IMG/VR virus record: IMGVR_UViG_2563366829_000009
Coordinates: 1 to 5,018 of that record
From: a virus
Lineage: Duplodnaviria > Heunggongvirae > Uroviricota > Caudoviricetes
Reading direction: 5' to 3' (one strand)
Length of the DNA: 5,018 nucleotides
Positions within the stretch are counted from its first letter, which is position 1; each line of letters starts with the position of its first letter. Positions 1 to 5,018 of the stretch are shown piece by piece. The translations under genes and the position numbers were made by a program. The notes beneath the pieces were generated by a model. That model did not search any database. It worked only from the letters and a program-made list of their open reading frames with translations, and was not told where the DNA came from.

Positions 1-202
1 CGATAAAGCGTGACTACATCAGTGTCATGCCCAAACCAGACGGGTTAACGGCAGCAAAGAACCTTGCAGAGGCGTTCGAGCATTATAACGAATGGCATCC
101 GCATAGTGCACTGGGTTATCGCTCGCCACGGGAATATCTACGGCAGCAAGCCAGTAATGGGTTAAGTGATAACAGGTGTCTGGAAATATAGGGGCAAATC
201 CA
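1..202 (+). mobile_element. IS2-like insertion sequence, right end (partial; element continues beyond window start)
   Basis: Frame-3 translation of 3-191 gives a DDE-transposase C-terminus (...[36 protein letters not shown]) that I recognise as IS2 OrfB. The sequence after the stop (GGGGCAAATCCA, ending at 202) matches my memory of the IS2 right terminus. The minus-strand reading frame of the neighbouring gene changes character exactly at 202/203. The target-site duplication cannot be checked because the left end is outside the window. Confidence 0.78.
3..191 (+). CDS. insD: IS2-family transposase OrfB (InsD-like), C-terminal 62 codons, 5'-partial
   Basis: Open frame from the window edge to TAG at 189-191. 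The translation [62 protein letters not shown] is a typical IS3-family/IS2 transposase C-terminal tail. Confidence 0.75.
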
Positions 203-433
203 GCCGATAAGAATTGATGCTGCTGGTTTGTAAAAGAGAAGGCCGCAAAGAAAGCTGAGCATCGACAGGAGCACCCGGCGACGGATGGGGTACTCTACTG
301 CAGAGGTAACAAAAATTACCACCCCAGCCAAAGCCCCTAAAGCAACCTCCGGAGGGACACCTGCAATAACTGCAGCAAGAGAACCAAAACTAAGCAACTG
401 ATTTAATTGCTCATTTGTTACTTGAGCAGACAT
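203..433 (-). pseudogene. Small hydrophobic membrane protein gene (holin-like or lysogenic-conversion-like), N-terminal 77 codons native, truncated and fused into IS2
   Basis: ATG at 433-431 is preceded by AGGAGA (rc of 438-443) at 5-nt spacing. Residues 1-77 (MSAQVTNEQLNQLLSFGSLAAVIAGVPPEVALGALAGVVIFVTSAVEYPIRRRVLLSMLSFLCGLLFYKPAASILIG) contain two or three hydrophobic helices. Codon 78 onward (WICPYISRH..., down to 116) lies inside the IS2 terminus, so the 105-aa ORF in the track is a fusion artefact. The original C-terminus is lost or displaced. Confidence 0.55.
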
Positions 434-714
434 ACTTTCTCCTGTTTACTATCTATAAGCCAGTCAATTATTGATGACTAAACCCGCATAGCAAACCATA
501 TATGAATCATTATTGTTCCATATCATATATCTCAATAAAAGTACTAATGATTTTACAGAACGAGCCAGCAGAGTGGGGGCAGTTGTACAGGAACCATAGA
601 CTTAATTTTGTATTTAATAATGCTATGGTGTAATAAACCTGAACATGTATTTAAAATACGTACTGATTCATGATAGAATTCAAAGATAACTTTTCACCAA
701 CTCCGTTTTTGATA

Positions 715-741
715 CCCGCAATATTTTGCGGGCTTTTTTTT
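715..741 (+). terminator. Intrinsic terminator-like hairpin (CCCGCAA-TATT-TTGCGGG) followed by a T8 run, oriented for plus-strand transcription; may act bidirectionally
   Basis: 7-bp GC-rich stem 715-721/726-732 with a 4-nt loop, then T734-T741. The T-run overlaps the tailspike stop codon (rc of 740-742 = TAA). On the minus strand the hairpin is followed only by UAUCAAAAAC, so termination of the tailspike transcript here would be weak. Confidence 0.55.
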
Positions 742-3700
742 AACGTTCTTCCAGAGACTGAACCCGCTCTTTTATCTTATCCATTTCTCTGCGCTGCCAT
801 GCTGCCTCGATATAGAATAAGAGATCAGGTCTGACCCCCCATCTAGATCCTGCTGGCGTTATTTCAACGCGCTCAATGATGTCTTCTATTACCATCACTG
901 GATTATCATCATCATCAACAATGATGCTCCCGTCATTATCAGTCAGCGGCATTTCCCTTTGGCCAGTAATGACGTCATCATATACTGCGGGATAATCGTC
1001 ATAGCAAAGAAAGGCATAGCGGCATGTTGTGCTTTCTTCTTCCATGAGTCCGTGAGAAATAAGAACATCACGAAGTTGCTGCGCGATTACACCATGATGT
1101 ATCCTCGCCCCTTCTTCCCCCTTTATAGCGACAGCGTTCAGCCATTTATAAGCGATATACCTGACGTCACCCCAGGCATCCAGCAATGCTTCGTCAGGAG
1201 AGACCGGCTCTGTCTTTAATGTTCCGTCACTGGTAACCACAGGATTGGAGCCAAGATAAACTGTCGAGAACCTGTTTCCCGGACCACCAAGAGCATTTAC
1301 ATTATCAAGATAAGGTTTAACATCTCCGTTCTCAAAAAGATGTTCGAGTGCGTTATATACCGCGCGACGTGGAGTACTGCTTCCGGAACCATGCAACGTT
1401 ATCATTGCACCATCTGCTGAAGACGTTGTTTCACCGCCGCTAACGATTAATCTCTGAGCGGTAACATCATCAGACGGTACTTTCTTCGCAATAATGGCGT
1501 AATTACCCTCAAGTTTGACTTCCGCGCGAACTTGTCCTGATGTACCTGCATGGACAGTCAGTGACTGGACGGCAACATCATCTGTGAAATCAACGGGTAC
1601 AGGAACCGTCCTCACGCCTGACGTCGACATAAAAGTAGGAAGCGTTCTGTTAGGAGTGGCTCCGTAGACAAAATCCCTTGAAACAAATTCTTCCTGTTTA
1701 ATTTTCACCCTGAAACAATACAAATCAGCCGGGTGACCATCGTGAACATAAGGATATTTTCTGTTGTTATCCCCTATGCTCCATGGGTTTAGAAAGTCTT
1801 CCCCACCGAAAATGTAGTACAGCCAGTTGTCTTTGATACAAACTGAACCAACACCAACCGCAGAGTTAACTATTCCGCCCTGATAAATCTGATCAGTAAC
1901 ATTAACCCACTCTACATTATCCAGACTCCACTCATTGACGTTAACTCTGGTCATAAATGTTCTTGGATAATTTCCTGCATAACGGTTATCAGGTTCTCCT
2001 CCTTCCCACTCACCAAATGCGCGCTCACTGCCAAAAATAATCAGCTCATCGCCAACTTTGGCAAAAGGAAGGTTTGAGTGATGAACATTATTTGGGAAGC
2101 GAAGAGAATTCCATGATGTACCTAAATCAGAGCTTCTGTGCAATGAACTACCGGGTTGAGTACTTAATGTCCCCCTGGTCGTCAGATACAGAATGCCATC
2201 ATAATATTTTACACATGGCTCAGATGCATTCGCCTCATATTCTACAGGTATGCGTCTGCGAACAAAGCTACCAGGAGAACCGAAAGCATCAGAGAAATAG
2301 AGTATCCCAAGCTCGCGTGGACCAATATCACCATTATGGTAGCCAACAGCAAAACTGTTATCGCTAATCGTCGCAAAACTGTGAATCTCAGTAACAGGAG
2401 TGCTTCCGTCAACAAAAGAAGGAATAGTTCCAAGACTGGTTTTTCTCCATGGTGACGAGTGAAATGATGTGCCAAAACTCCAGTATCTACCCTCGTTATT
2501 CTGATCCACATCCTGGGTATTTTGCGTCGTAACTGTAAAGGTATTTTTATCAATAACAGTAGTCACCGTCATATTCCCGGTAACACCTGTAACACCAGAG
2601 TTTGAGAAGTTGACAAAATCACCAGCAAATAATCCGTGATCAGTAATGCGAATATAAGCGACTTGCTGATTTGCTGCTTTCGTTATACCACCATAAACGC
2701 GAAGGCTGCGACTCATTGGGCGATCCCACAACTCTGCAACCTGCAGTTTATTTCCTCTCACGGTCCGCGTCTCAATTACAGCAAAAAGGCGATTTCTGAC
2801 AACCCCCATACTCATGCAGTGATAGTTAACTGTGGGATAGTTTTCATGTAAATCTGTAAGCCATTCCGGCGTTGTCCAGGTCTTCCCGTCATCTCCTGAG
2901 CGAACCCATGCAACATGGAGGTTATTTACACCATGGCGGTCTCCAGCCATAAAAGGCGCATAGATGACATTGTCATATACAAACGTTTTATCCTGCGTCC
3001 AGGCGTTGTACCACGGTGTATCTGTAATTTTAAATAACTCTCCCTGGATAAAATCTTCAGAAGCATAAAAAAGAGGCTGGCCCGGTATTCTCTCAAATAA
3101 AAAACGAGCATTTTTAAATCGACTGACATCCGGAAGAGTTGATACTTTAAAAGTAAGCCCTAATCCGTCAATTTTATAACCTGGAGATGAGGCTTCAAGG
3201 CACGCGCTTATTGCAGTGGAATCGTCATTTATACCATCACCAACAGCTCCAAAATCTTTGGGGCTAATAGCATCACGCATTTTATCCTGGAACGTTCGGT
3301 ACACAGCCCCAGAACCATACTGAATAAACCAACCAAAACCACCAACAACTCCGGCGATTGCAGCATCGACATAATTACGCATTGAGCGATTATTTACAGC
3401 GTCCTGCTCAAATGATGGATCTGCAAGGTTAGAAATTTTGTTTTGCTTTGCATCGTAATATTTTGCAAGCAAAGATGGTTTCATCAATGCACGTCTGAAC
3501 CACCCAAAACATTGCTGGATCAGCATCGTCAGGTAGTCAAAGGCATCTTCATGCACTTCGGGGAAAAATTTTCCCTGATTGCGAAGGTCTGTGTCCTGCA
3601 CTACATCAAGCACACGATCTATCGTAATTCGCCATCCAGTAGCAAGCGGAGACGGAAGAACCACAGAACCGCCACTATAAGTGCCCGCCCCAGTTACCGT

Positions 3701-3859
3701 ATAACCGGTATCCAGGACCAATTCTGTTACGTTCCCGTTCAGGTCAGACACCTGAACAACCAGGTCTGATTTTCTGAAAATTCGAAAAGTATACGGAAAC
3801 GATGTCGTAACGCCGTTACCGGTGTATTCGTTGTGGTCAACTTCGGTTGAGACCGTCAT
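740..3859 (-). CDS. Phage tailspike protein, endosialidase-like (endo-N-acetylneuraminidase family candidate) with conserved N-terminal virion-anchor domain and C-terminal intramolecular chaperone domain
   Basis: Intact 1039-codon ORF. ATG at 3859-3857 with GGAGA (rc of 3866-3870) 7 nt upstream. N-terminus MTVSTEVDHNEYTGNGVTTSFPYTFRIF is a conserved tailspike particle-binding module, recalled as epsilon15-like. Two Asp-box (S-x-D-x-G-x-T/S-W) motifs: SGDDGKTW (aa 321-328, nt 2876-2899) and SSDLGTSW (aa 576-583, nt 2111-2134). The blocks VNYHCMSMGV, ITKAANQ and KYYDGILYLTTRGT resemble endosialidases of K1 coliphages as I recall them. C-terminal 162 aa carry the Ser-Lys dyad spacing (S877...K882) and ARIHHGVIAQQ typical of self-cleaving chaperone domains. 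Confidence 0.8.
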   Translation of the reverse strand: MTVSTEVDHNEYTGNGVTTSFPYTFRIFRKSDLVVQVSDLNGNVTELVLDTGYTVTGAGTYSGGSVVLPSPLATGWRITIDRVLDVVQDTDLRNQGKFFPEVHEDAFDYLTMLIQQCFGWFRRALMKPSLLAKYYDAKQNKISNLADPSFEQDAVNNRSMRNYVDAAIAGVVGGFGWFIQYGSGAVYRTFQDKMRDAISPKDFGAVGDGINDDSTAISACLEASSPGYKIDGLGLTFKVSTLPDVSRFKNARFLFERIPGQPLFYASEDFIQGELFKITDTPWYNAWTQDKTFVYDNVIYAPFMAGDRHGVNNLHVAWVRSGDDGKTWTTPEWLTDLHENYPTVNYHCMSMGVVRNRLFAVIETRTVRGNKLQVAELWDRPMSRSLRVYGGITKAANQQVAYIRITDHGLFAGDFVNFSNSGVTGVTGNMTVTTVIDKNTFTVTTQNTQDVDQNNEGRYWSFGTSFHSSPWRKTSLGTIPSFVDGSTPVTEIHSFATISDNSFAVGYHNGDIGPRELGILYFSDAFGSPGSFVRRRIPVEYEANASEPCVKYYDGILYLTTRGTLSTQPGSSLHRSSDLGTSWNSLRFPNNVHHSNLPFAKVGDELIIFGSERAFGEWEGGEPDNRYAGNYPRTFMTRVNVNEWSLDNVEWVNVTDQIYQGGIVNSAVGVGSVCIKDNWLYYIFGGEDFLNPWSIGDNNRKYPYVHDGHPADLYCFRVKIKQEEFVSRDFVYGATPNRTLPTFMSTSGVRTVPVPVDFTDDVAVQSLTVHAGTSGQVRAEVKLEGNYAIIAKKVPSDDVTAQRLIVSGGETTSSADGAMITLHGSGSSTPRRAVYNALEHLFENGDVKPYLDNVNALGGPGNRFSTVYLGSNPVVTSDGTLKTEPVSPDEALLDAWGDVRYIAYKWLNAVAIKGEEGARIHHGVIAQQLRDVLISHGLMEEESTTCRYAFLCYDDYPAVYDDVITGQREMPLTDNDGSIIVDDDDNPVMVIEDIIERVEITPAGSRWGVRPDLLFYIEAAWQRREMDKIKERVQSLEER
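743..1231 (-). other. C-terminal intramolecular chaperone / autoproteolytic domain (peptidase S74-like) of the tailspike; predicted self-cleavage between Ser877 and Asp878
   Basis: Sequence ...GSNPVVTS|DGTLKTEP... with Ser877 (codon 1229-1231) and Lys882 (codon 1214-1216) five residues apart, followed by DAWGDVRYIAYKWLNAVAIKGEEGARIHHGVIAQQLRDV. This matches the established Ser/Lys dyad architecture of the C-terminal chaperone domains of endosialidases and related tail fibres. Confidence 0.65.
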
Positions 3860-4054
3860 GTTAAATCTCCAGATAGTCGCAGCACCCGTTGCGCCGCATA
3901 TCTGGTTATTCTATTACCTGAAAAACCATATATGGATAAAAAGACTATAAATACCAATAGATATTACCTTTCGGGTAATTTGCAAAACGTGCTGGATAGC
4001 AAACAAATTATTTGTTACTGTATAAACATACAGTTATTGCATGGAGAAGATAAG
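3860..4054. promoter_or_regulatory. AT-rich divergent intergenic region between the tailspike gene (minus) and the small ORF (plus); contains a palindrome and candidate promoter elements
   Basis: 195 bp between two divergent start codons, each with a good RBS. Contains palindrome ATTACC-TTTCG-GGTAAT (3963-3979) immediately followed by the self-complementary hexamer TTGCAA (3980-3985), and TATAAA at 4021-4026 preceded by TG at 4019-4020. No hexamer pair with canonical 17-bp spacing was found, so the promoter assignment is tentative. Confidence 0.4.
3963..3979. repeat. Palindrome ATTACC-N5-GGTAAT (candidate operator or small hairpin), copy A
   Basis: Perfect 6-bp arms with a 5-nt spacer. The same half-site recurs at 3914-3919, 4321-4326 (within an inverted GGTAATTGCAAA motif) and as TTTACC-N5-GGTAAA at 4343-4359. 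Confidence 0.45.
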
Positions 4055-4312
4055 ATGCAGCAGTATCACTATCCACTGGAAGACGGATTTACCGAAAGGA
4101 TTCACACGCCGGGAGGCGTCAGGTCACTGGTGGAGGGATCGCACTTGATGAAATTACTCCGGGATCTCGATAAGGATGGATTTAATGTCGATGGCCCACT
4201 TGCCGAACTGACTGCACTGATTAACTACGTCACCAGCTCACAGATGTCTATGCAGGATCTGCAAACACATCTCGACTATTGTGCCGAACAATTACGAAAA
4301 CAAACCAGATAA
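4055..4312 (+). CDS. Hypothetical small acidic protein (85 aa), function unknown
   Basis: ATG at 4055 preceded by GGAG (4043-4046) at 8-nt spacing; stop TAA at 4310-4312. The ORF track start at 3932 adds 41 low-complexity codons from the AT-rich promoter region with no RBS, so the shorter start is preferred. Product MQQYHYPLEDGFTERIHTPGGVRSLVEGSHLMKLLRDLDKDGFNVDGPLAELTALINYVTSSQMSMQDLQTHLDYCAEQLRKQTR has about 14 D/E against 8 K/R and no hydrophobic segment; I do not recognise a family. Confidence 0.5.
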   Translation: MQQYHYPLEDGFTERIHTPGGVRSLVEGSHLMKLLRDLDKDGFNVDGPLAELTALINYVTSSQMSMQDLQTHLDYCAEQLRKQTR

Positions 4313-4330
4313 GGTTTGCAATTACCAAAT

Positions 4331-4374
4331 GGAGTGCTTATATTTACCTTTGCGGTAAATTTACATCGCACTCC
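4331..4374. repeat. Nested inverted repeat: GGAGTGC (4331-4337) / GCACTCC (4368-4374) enclosing palindrome TTTACC-TTTGC-GGTAAA (4343-4359), copy C of the ATTACC/GGTAAT-type motif
   Basis: Read directly from the sequence; lies 19-60 nt downstream of the small-ORF stop codon. Confidence 0.45.
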
Positions 4375-4385
4375 TCTTGTGCCAT

Positions 4386-4437
4386 AGTAATCGGGCACTG
4401 GCAAAATCCAGTGCCGGGATTGGTCTCCCGGATTACT
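4386..4437 (+). other. Compound stem-loop / imperfect long palindrome (candidate structured RNA element or protein-binding site)
   Basis: AGTAATC (4386-4392) pairs with GATTACT (4431-4437). Inside it is a perfect 8-bp hairpin GGCACTGG-CAAAAT-CCAGTGCC (4394-4415) and a second short hairpin GGGA-TTGGTC-TCCC (4416-4429). Confidence 0.35.
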
Positions 4438-4452
4438 ACAGAGGCACATATG

Positions 4453-4471
4453 CCGCATAAGCGGTTTTTTT
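4453..4471 (+). terminator. Weak intrinsic-terminator candidate (CCGC-ATAA-GCGG followed by T7) downstream of the small ORF
   Basis: 4-bp GC stem 4453-4456/4461-4464 followed by T4465-T4471. The stem is short, so confidence is low; it may act together with the upstream compound hairpin. Confidence 0.3.
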
Positions 4472-4566
4472 ATGTGTAAAGCGCACCTATTCTATGGTGG
4501 GCTGTGTGGGGGCACCGAAAGGTGCGCCGGGTTCCTTTGTAGCCGGTAAGACCAACTCTGCACAGT

Positions 4567-4599
4567 TCACCACCATCTGATTGGTCTCAGCGGTGGTGA
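4567..4599. repeat. Inverted repeat TCACCACC-N17-GGTGGTGA upstream of the antirepressor start (candidate operator)
   Basis: 8-bp perfect arms at 4567-4574 and 4592-4599. A second overlapping inverted repeat AGACCAA (4549-4555) / TTGGTCT (4581-4587) is also present. Located 27-60 nt upstream of ATG 4626. Confidence 0.4.
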
Positions 4600-4625
4600 T
4601 TAACCTAACTACAAAGGTGATCGCT

Positions 4626-4793
4626 ATGAATACCAAACCTTCCATCTTTTCCTTTGAGTCATCCTGCCAGATCCGTATGTTCATGATTGACGGAGAACCT
4701 TGGTTTGTCACCAAAGATGTGTGCAATGCTTTGAATATTGATGTTACACAAGCGAGAAAACTTGATAAAAAAGGCTGGAACAAAAAGGGGCTG
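4626..4793 (+). pseudogene. Bro-N-domain phage antirepressor-like gene, N-terminal 56 codons only; truncated by IS3-family insertion
   Basis: ATG 4626 preceded by AAGGTG (4614-4619) at 6-nt spacing. Translation MNTKPSIFSFESSCQIRMFMIDGEPWFVTKDVCNALNIDVTQARKLDKK... fits the Bro-N / antirepressor N-terminal pattern (F-x-F...IR...DGEPWF-x-x-KDV...L). The frame runs straight into the IS terminus TGAACCGCCCC at 4794, whose first three bases supply the stop codon. Confidence 0.6.
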
Positions 4794-5018
4794 TGAACCG
4801 CCCCGGGTTTCCTGGAGAGTGTTTTATCTGTGAACTCAGGCTGCCAGATCATCGTTTCCGATGGAAGCATAATAAGCTTTTTCTGCTTCTGCCGGAGGAG
4901 TATGGCCCAGCCTTTCCAGCAATCGTCGATTGTTATACCAGTCCACCCACGTGAGTGTGGCCAGTTCCACTTCTGCACGGTTTTTCCAGCTCTTACGGTG
5001 TATTACCTCCGCTTTGTA
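4794..5018 (-). mobile_element. IS3-family insertion sequence (IS629/IS3411-like), terminal inverted repeat and 3' end of transposase; element continues beyond window end
   Basis: Terminus TGAACCGCCCCGGGTTTCCTGGAGAG at 4794 is a characteristic IS3-family end (TG...CA). The minus-strand frame 5018-4836 encodes a DDE-transposase C-terminus. The target-site duplication cannot be checked within the window. Confidence 0.75.
4836..5018 (-). CDS. IS3-family transposase OrfB, C-terminal 60 codons, 5'-partial
   Basis: Reverse-complement translation YKAEVIHRKSWKNRAEVELATLTWVDWYNNRRLLERLGHTPPAEAEKAYYASIGNDDLAA* is in frame with the window edge; stop TGA is rc of 4836-4838. It is absent from the ORF track only because it has no in-window start codon. 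Confidence 0.8.
   Translation of the reverse strand, partial: YKAEVIHRKSWKNRAEVELATLTWVDWYNNRRLLERLGHTPPAEAEKAYYASIGNDDLAA

Follow-up and report, generated by a model that had tools for sequence, protein, structure and literature searches.

Intact endosialidase tailspike gene between two insertion sequences in a decaying Uetakevirus prophage of K1-genotype Escherichia coli

The stretch of DNA analysed here, IMG/VR record IMGVR_UViG_2563366829_000009 (positions 1 to 5,018, in the following the window), is the tailspike and lysis end of a Uetakevirus (epsilon15/phiV10-like) prophage situated between guaA and yfgI in K1-genotype Escherichia coli. An intact gene for an endosialidase (endo-N-acetylneuraminidase) tailspike of 1039 amino acids (aa) and a divergently oriented open reading frame (ORF) of 85 aa, orf85, are located between the 5' fragments of a holin gene and a BRO-N antirepressor gene, and each of these fragments runs into the end of an insertion sequence (IS), IS2 on the left and IS629/IS1203 on the right (Table 1). 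An earlier note on the same DNA had described an IS-flanked tailspike with a small ORF; all its elements were recovered with both ORFs intact, and the boundaries could be sharpened.

An exact look-up of the tailspike protein in public assemblies led to the scaffold KE137271.1 of a draft short-read assembly (GCA_000408745.1), in which exactly one contig corresponds to the window (fetched locus L006, 8842-13859, reverse complement) and runs of N directly adjoin it on both sides. Beyond these gaps the opposite IS ends, the duplicated targets (GCCGA for IS2, CTG for IS629) and the remainder of each split gene can be identified. The nearest complete genome is that of strain MS 196-1, with two single-nucleotide polymorphisms (SNPs) over bases 1-4794 and the same IS2 insertion, while six SNPs over 4592 bp separate the window from strain AF14.

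On the left side, bases 1-202 show 96% identity to the last 202 nucleotides (nt) of IS2A of strain K-12 (positions 1130-1331) and the terminal inverted repeat closes ...GGGGCAAATCCA at base 202. A full IS2 of 1331 bp, 97.7% identical to IS2A and annotated with a programmed frameshift, occupies the same site in MS 196-1, where the sequence reads ...CTATGCCGA, then IS2, then GCCGATAAG..., while the uninterrupted holin gene of AF14 reads CTATGCCGATAAG with a single GCCGA. The 3' part of the holin gene was found beyond IS2, and an intact gene of 405 bp is present in AF14, in strain APEC O1 and in the phage vB_EcoP_ZX5 (ZX5). Among complete E. coli genomes the junction between holin gene and IS2 is found in MS 196-1 alone.

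On the right side, bases 4794-5018 are 99.1% identical over 225 nt to a copy in O157 annotated as 'IS3-like element IS1203 family transposase', 99.6% identical to a third IS of the prophage in MS 196-1 and 100% identical to an IS located inside the tailspike gene of strain 23CRST038. Both ends of IS629 were recovered across the gap in the scaffold, and on its far side the sequence reads ...GGCGGTTCA, CTG, TATTCAATAC..., after which the BRO-N gene continues to its end; as the intact BRO-N gene reads GGGGCTGTATTC with CTG in single copy, the duplication is CTG. Both sides of this insertion are seen in L006 and the far side also in a second assembly, L005 (GCA_000408725.1), a sister assembly of the window's source, but a search for the junction gave no match among complete E. 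coli genomes, nor in an exact-match scan of the genome contig collection.

Since each IS carries its own target-site duplication, these are two simple transpositions with no loss of flanking DNA. The elements, IS2 and IS629, are also different ones, as the earlier note had stated, although its wording of different IS types holds only in part, as RefSeq annotates both as IS3-family transposases. IS ends on both flanks, and contig ends placed in repeats where misassembly is common, could suggest that the segment between the IS is able to move the depolymerase gene, as a composite or pseudo-composite transposon, or that the junctions are assembly chimeras. This is extremely unlikely, because the halves of each interrupted gene directly flank its IS. 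A composite transposon or mobile island, which the earlier note had also set aside, was ruled out by the two different IS, their separate duplications and the native synteny when compared with ZX5, AF14 and APEC O1; chimeric junctions were ruled out by the presence of the holin insertion in the closed MS 196-1 genome and of the BRO-N insertion on both sides and in two assemblies. A repeat scan of the window revealed no long direct or inverted repeats joining its two ends.

The two ends of the contig lie 202 and 225 nt within IS2 and IS629, respectively, because the assembler was unable to resolve multicopy repeats, and it is this break, combined with two real insertions, that makes the tailspike look like an isolated island. 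The island appearance described earlier is therefore largely an assembly effect; the insertions are real, while the isolation comes partly from contig ends at N-gaps in repeats. The IS2 interval in the L006 scaffold is 1337 bp, to be compared with the true IS2 length of 1331 bp, while the IS629 interval is 4186 bp in L006 and 838 bp in L005. Other drafts with an identical tailspike hold it on contigs of 11.6-11.8 kb, extending from inside the same IS2 to inside the third IS629, which is the same break-at-repeat pattern as in the window. The BRO-N gene is intact in these strains, and the window strain, with one IS629 more, has its contig shortened to 5 kb. The identical tailspike protein occurs in 38 blocks of the public collection, and in 21 of the 38 the longest contig carrying it is only 2-5 kb, which would fit many further isolates being broken at IS on both sides.

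The gene order of the prophage is that of ZX5: antirepressor, small ORF, tailspike, two holins, endolysin, DUF2514 protein, attachment site and integrase, with a DNA identity of 96-99% in collinear blocks. In MS 196-1 the integrase gene adjoins guaA and the DUF2514 gene adjoins yfgI. ZX5 is a viable temperate phage that integrates at the 3' end of guaA, its lysogens are spontaneously induced to ~10^7 plaque-forming units (PFU)/mL, and its ORF7 and ORF4 are an endosialidase-type tailspike and a BRO-N antirepressor, respectively, overexpression of the latter promoting the lytic cycle (PMC9782041). The likeness between ZX5 (MW722083) and the window covers the gene order over the whole window, orf85 (100%), the tailspike protein (99.5%), the holin, the BRO-N antirepressor and the guaA site, with ~96% DNA identity over bases 203-4793. 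The difference is that ZX5 is complete and viable, whereas the copy in the window has IS2 in the holin gene and IS629 in the antirepressor gene, and at least 8 kb of tail genes is missing from the sister genomes. AF14 and APEC O1 also contain this module, and their virion-gene side, the part that was examined, is uninterrupted; in AF14 this is true of the lysis side as well. Besides ZX5, the relatives are phiV10, phiv142-3 and epsilon15; the backbone is the same in phiV10 and epsilon15, but their tailspikes are different ones, specific for O157 and for the Salmonella O-antigen (PMC9782041).

In the prophage of MS 196-1 a third IS629 was found (locus L001, 31780-33089). It has no target-site duplication, with TTG on one side and CTG on the other. 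At this IS the connector gene breaks off at codon 117, and on the other side only the C-terminal 627 aa remain of a divergent last ejection protein (junction region L001 29907-33441), whose identity to the corresponding proteins of AF14 and ZX5 is no more than 22-28%. The tail protein, a gp14-like core protein, a transglycosylase and more are missing from MS 196-1, at least 8 kb altogether, and since these genes are lost beside the third IS629 the decay is real. No DNA match to AF14 or ZX5 was found for the flanking accessory region (L001 28018-31780). An end of the third IS629 also bounds the corresponding contig in L005. MS 196-1 has 38 places that are matched by the IS-derived sequence of the window, where the median genome has 7, and its pheV island is dense with IS. 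The earlier description of a decaying prophage in an IS-rich genome is borne out by these data.

The tailspike consists of an N-terminal virion adaptor (about aa 1-200), a catalytic beta-propeller with a beta-barrel insert, a stalk and a C-terminal intramolecular chaperone domain, and it matches the Pfam families End_N_terminal, End_beta_propel, End_beta_barrel, End_tail_spike and Peptidase_S74. The endosialidase families PF12217 (E-value 1.7e-232), PF12195, PF12218 and PF12219 are all matched over their full length, and the N-terminal extension, the six-bladed catalytic beta-propeller with beta-barrel and the stalk that characterise endoN enzymes (GH58) are all present. Structures of endoNF, the enzyme of the lytic phage K1F, could be aligned to aa 205-876 (PDB 1V0E and 3GVL) and 757-1038 (3GW6), with E547, R562 and R613 of the tailspike aligned to E581, R596 and R647 of endoNF, reportedly the catalytic residues according to Stummeyer et al. 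2005. Peptidase_S74 (PF13884) is located at aa 877-937, with the conserved cleavage-site serine S877 within the sequence NPVVTSDG. Being 62% identical to endoNF and 95% identical to the enzyme of phage CUS-3, the tailspike is predicted to cleave alpha-2,8-polysialic acid, and it would then be the normal receptor-destroying enzyme of the phage for the polysialic-acid K1 capsule. An NCBIfam search gave no matches for the tailspike, the holin, the BRO-N protein or orf85. There is a mosaic joint at about aa 193, residues 193-1039 being 95% identical to the CUS-3 tailspike while residues 1-209 are similar to adaptors at the N-terminus of other podovirus tailspikes (PDB structures of Dpo31 and Dpo36 of Klebsiella phages).

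The tailspike gene has no nucleotide difference when compared with MS 196-1, one or two when compared with AF14, IAI39 and GN02050, and 10 (5 aa, 99.5% aa identity) when compared with ZX5. Being only 0-2 nt from the copies in other strains, it needs no selection to be intact, which agrees with recent insertion, the explanation that the earlier note had offered as its alternative. Among 12 tailspike sequences 44 synonymous and 22 non-synonymous polymorphic sites were counted, and the pairwise ratio of non-synonymous to synonymous substitution rates (dN/dS) is 0.09-0.35 across the family, some of the sequences compared being those of the free phage ZX5 and of prophages without interruption. These values are ordinary purifying selection on a working phage tailspike and are uninformative on the remnant, whose branch has zero synonymous differences from its nearest relatives. 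As no substitutions have accumulated there since the prophage was inactivated, selection is not measurable on this branch; the dN/dS comparison proposed earlier thus gave values for the family but none for the remnant lineage.

The evidence on these points also bears on the possibility that the host keeps the endosialidase, possibly together with orf85, to trim or remodel its own K1 capsule or to exclude K1-specific phages after the prophage was crippled. A full-length ORF with catalytic residues and chaperone domain intact, in a prophage that has lost its antirepressor, a holin and (in sister genomes) its tail genes, is in keeping with such a domestication, as is the identical protein in the 38 collection blocks. 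We nevertheless regard it as very improbable, considering the near absence of substitutions between the copies and the origin of the dN/dS values in comparisons that include copies from viable phage and uninterrupted prophages. A tailspike 99.8% identical to that in the window is moreover split by an IS629/IS1203-type element in 23CRST038 (L015, NZ_AP045810.1, 2038-6470), at about nt 2916-2921, which falls in the C-terminal chaperone region and cuts off the last ~68 codons. In strain A33 (L021, 538-3650) both the tailspike gene and the Bro-N gene are annotated as frameshifted, although the seven single-base gaps in the tailspike alignment possibly look more like long-read indel error than real decay. 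The K1 capsule cluster of MS 196-1 (L028, record 834-851 kb), which includes the alpha-2,8-polysialyltransferase gene, contains neuD, neuB, neuC, neuS and kps genes, but the annotation gives frameshifts in neuA and neuE, and an IS1 lies between kpsT and neuD. Either the strain may be acapsular, or there may be indel errors in the assembly, in which iucD too is annotated with a frameshift. If the capsule frameshifts are real, the enzyme would be without substrate in its own cell. A consensus scan upstream of the tailspike gene (bases 3860-4054) showed no sigma-70-like promoter on the minus strand, which is its coding strand, and orf85 is a backbone gene of all epsilon15-like phages. The capsule-modifying or defence function suggested in the earlier note is accordingly not upheld, an inactivated tailspike in a close relative being what that note itself had named as speaking against it. 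In the stronger form, where the endosialidase is retained and expressed for the benefit of the host in the clone with the IS-disabled prophage, and the hits in the antirepressor and holin genes are selected taming steps, the probability is likewise very small; the consequence would be a shedding or thinning of the cell's own polysialic-acid capsule, or a removal of receptors that blunts the adsorption of K1 phages.

Taken together, the data are very probably explained by two recent and independent IS insertions in an already degenerating prophage, seen through a draft contig, with the tailspike gene and orf85 intact by chance and youth. The first holin gene would have been the target of IS2 and the BRO-N antirepressor gene that of IS629/IS1203, while the tailspike gene and orf85 would have been spared as no IS landed there and the time was too short for point mutations. 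The prophage would already be defective, with antirepressor and holin knocked out and, in sister genomes, a third IS629 accompanied by the deletion of tail and ejection genes, so that the tailspike gene would be a leftover that has yet to decay rather than a function kept by the host. While the identity of the elements, their junctions and duplications, the contig ends, the gene order, the deletion and the sequence identities were observed directly, we infer from them that the insertions are recent, that the prophage can no longer be induced or lyse the cell, and that the tailspike is not under selection.

Some observations weigh against this explanation. The gap at the BRO-N insertion is 3785 N in L006 (5057-8841) and 655 N in L005 (8445-9099), to be compared with 1310 bp for a single IS629, so that the right-hand insertion could hold more than one element, gap size estimates being unreliable. 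The deletion of tail genes is seen in MS 196-1, in L005 and in the 11.6-11.8 kb contigs, while the corresponding region is N in the assembly of the window itself. The neutrality of the tailspike is something that we infer. Finally, three IS hits in a prophage of ~36 kb exceed the ~0.25 expected, by a rough estimate, from the genome-wide density of IS2 and IS629, and some non-randomness is likely, either through permissive targets or through selection against induction and lysis.

The last point leads to an explanation in which the IS hits were favoured because they disable functions that are lethal to the host, namely induction through the antirepressor, lysis through the holin and the production of virions, while the tailspike, being harmless, was spared. 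All three IS-linked lesions are indeed in genes for induction, lysis or virion assembly, a distribution that is said to fit the general pattern of defective prophages in Bobay et al. 2014, and the same excess of hits over the rough expectation speaks for it. In its favour are also the homologue of the antirepressor in ZX5, which pushes the phage to lysis, and the spontaneous induction of ZX5 lysogens (PMC9782041). There are only three events, however, and as most phage genes are of these kinds any hit would look functional; prophages and islands are also permissive IS targets, as illustrated by the IS-filled pheV island of MS 196-1, and the same type of IS struck the harmless tailspike gene in 23CRST038. 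A disarmament driven by the host is thus improbable as an explanation of its own, and it is a selective gloss on recent insertion into a decaying prophage and not a contradiction of it.

Table 1. Features of the window, with the positions of the variable slot in related loci
Feature	Position	Strand	Remarks
IS2, right-hand 202 nt	1..202	+	OrfB/InsD transposase C-terminus, stop codon 189-191; Pfam rve_3
GCCGA	203..207	.	one copy of the 5-bp target-site duplication of IS2
Holin gene, 5' fragment	203..433	-	77 of 134 codons; first gene of the lysis cassette; Pfam PF16931 (Phage_holin_8), PHROG 198 holin
Spacer, AT-rich	434..739	.	tailspike to lysis genes
Endosialidase (endo-N-acetylneuraminidase) tailspike gene	740..3859	-	intact, 1039 aa
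Divergent intergenic region	3860..4054	.	between tailspike gene and orf85
orf85	4055..4312	+	intact, 85 aa; identical to WP_001188252.1
Promoter-like site	4316..4344	+	TTGCAA, 17 nt, TATATT; upstream of the RNA genes; consensus match only
isrK-like small RNA	4395..4471	+	with own terminator; Rfam RF01394, 74.7 bits (gathering score 50)
C4-type antisense RNA	4490..4577	+	full-length; Rfam RF01695, 78.6 bits (gathering score 45)
BRO-N antirepressor gene, 5' fragment	4626..4793	+	56 of 230 codons; Pfam Bro-N; intact protein PHROG 130 anti-repressor Ant
CTG	4791..4793		one copy of the 3-bp target-site duplication of IS629
IS629/IS1203, right-end 225 nt	4794..5018	-	inverted repeat TGAACCGCCCCGGG..., transposase C-terminus; contig stops inside the element
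Cargo slot in relatives	L015 6946-7674, L016 5633-6361, L017 5635-6574, L019 4133-4861, L020 4133-4861		

The product of orf85 is a stand-alone paralogue of the C-terminal domain of the BRO-N antirepressor encoded next to it (gene at L001 24626-25318), with 42% identity to aa 149-222 of that protein. It matches PHROG 450 and the C-terminal part of PHROG 1760 (anti-repressor), and homologues are occasionally annotated as anti-repressor, while a Pfam search of orf85 gave nothing meaningful. The gene adjoins the tailspike slot in ZX5, phiV10, epsilon15, SPN1S, Tyrion and Klebsiella phages with 58-100% identity, and as it is kept beside any tailspike it is a backbone gene of the genus and not part of the depolymerase module.

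C4-type antisense RNAs are regulators of antirepressor synthesis of the P1/P7 immI type, and in the window the C4-type RNA is located upstream of the antirepressor gene (start 4626) and co-oriented with it, which is the immI arrangement. Neither this RNA nor the isrK-like one had been listed in the earlier note. A c4-a1b1 target-like match (RF03163) at 4382-4434 overlaps isrK, with 39.9 bits falling below the gathering score of 46.7. Together with the promoter-like site the isrK-like and C4 RNAs form a putative control region of the P1 immI type for the BRO-N antirepressor gene that is cut by IS629. In such an immI-like circuit of isrK, C4 and the BRO-N gene orf85 likely has a role, and it may modulate the antirepressor. 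The arrangement resembles both P1/P7 immI (C4 RNA, icd, ant) and the IsrK-AnrP system of Salmonella Gifsy-1 in having C4 and isrK, both matched in Rfam over their full length, directly upstream of an antirepressor gene with a promoter-like site preceding them; it differs in that the antirepressor is a BRO-N protein cut by IS629, and its regulation is here a prediction from sequence. In the annotation of ZX5 a 37-aa 'ash family protein' ORF lies over the C4 region and is probably a mis-called RNA gene.

Directly after orf85 (~4313-4335 in the window) there is a slot with variable cargo, holding nothing in the window, a 729-bp hypothetical gene in some relatives and, in one, the YafO toxin and a partner on the opposite strand; it looks like a hotspot for morons or accessory genes. 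In the non-coding parts, a strong hairpin followed by a T-run was observed at 715-732, just past the stop codon of the tailspike gene, in the orientation of a plus-strand terminator, yet both neighbouring genes are on the minus strand; as an A-run precedes the hairpin, this terminator-like structure may be bidirectional. A motif of 15 nt occurs twice, as AAACCATATATGAAT at 493-507 and as AAACCATATATGGAT at 3923-3937, both containing the palindrome CCATATATGG and situated 60-74 nt upstream of the minus-strand start of the holin gene and 64-78 nt upstream of that of the tailspike gene, respectively. A late promoter or regulator site common to the two genes is one possibility, but as ~0.5 such pairs are expected by chance in 5 kb, the recurrence may also be coincidental.

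Compared with CUS-3, a P22-like K1 prophage of E. coli RS218 that integrates at argW and carries neuO, the likeness is 95% protein identity over aa 193-1039, i.e. the catalytic part and the chaperone, and both phages are temperate and resident in K1 strains. The N-terminal ~190 residues (the virion adaptor) are unrelated and the backbone is P22-like in CUS-3 whereas it is epsilon15-like in the window, which points to a horizontal exchange of the endosialidase catalytic module at about aa 193 between the two types of backbone. With endoNF of K1F (PDB 1V0E, 3GVL and 3GW6) the tailspike shares, besides 62% identity, the same domains from aa 205 to the C-terminus, the catalytic Glu/Arg/Arg and the cleavage-site serine of the chaperone, while the N-terminal adaptor of K1F is T7-like and K1F itself is lytic. 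Prophages riddled with IS are found among the cryptic prophages DLP12, Rac and Qin of K-12 and among the IS629-disrupted prophages of O157. The remnant resembles these in that multicopy IS3-family IS have entered genes for lysis, regulation and structure, that a deletion is associated with an IS and that chance has left some late genes intact, but it is much younger, its surviving genes being essentially identical to those of ZX5 and of uninterrupted prophage copies.

All components, endosialidase tailspikes, Uetakevirus prophages at guaA, IS2, IS629 and C4/IsrK RNAs, are known and the finding is an ordinary one; IS629 is a recurrent agent of decay for this epsilon15-like prophage. The region is a textbook young prophage remnant with little import beyond annotation. 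IS fragments at both ends of a window can merely mark the ends of a draft contig, and simple insertions can be told from deletions and composite transposons by the target-site duplications found on the two sides of scaffold gaps. An intact depolymerase gene in a broken prophage is no evidence of domestication as long as its sequence has not diverged from that in a viable phage.

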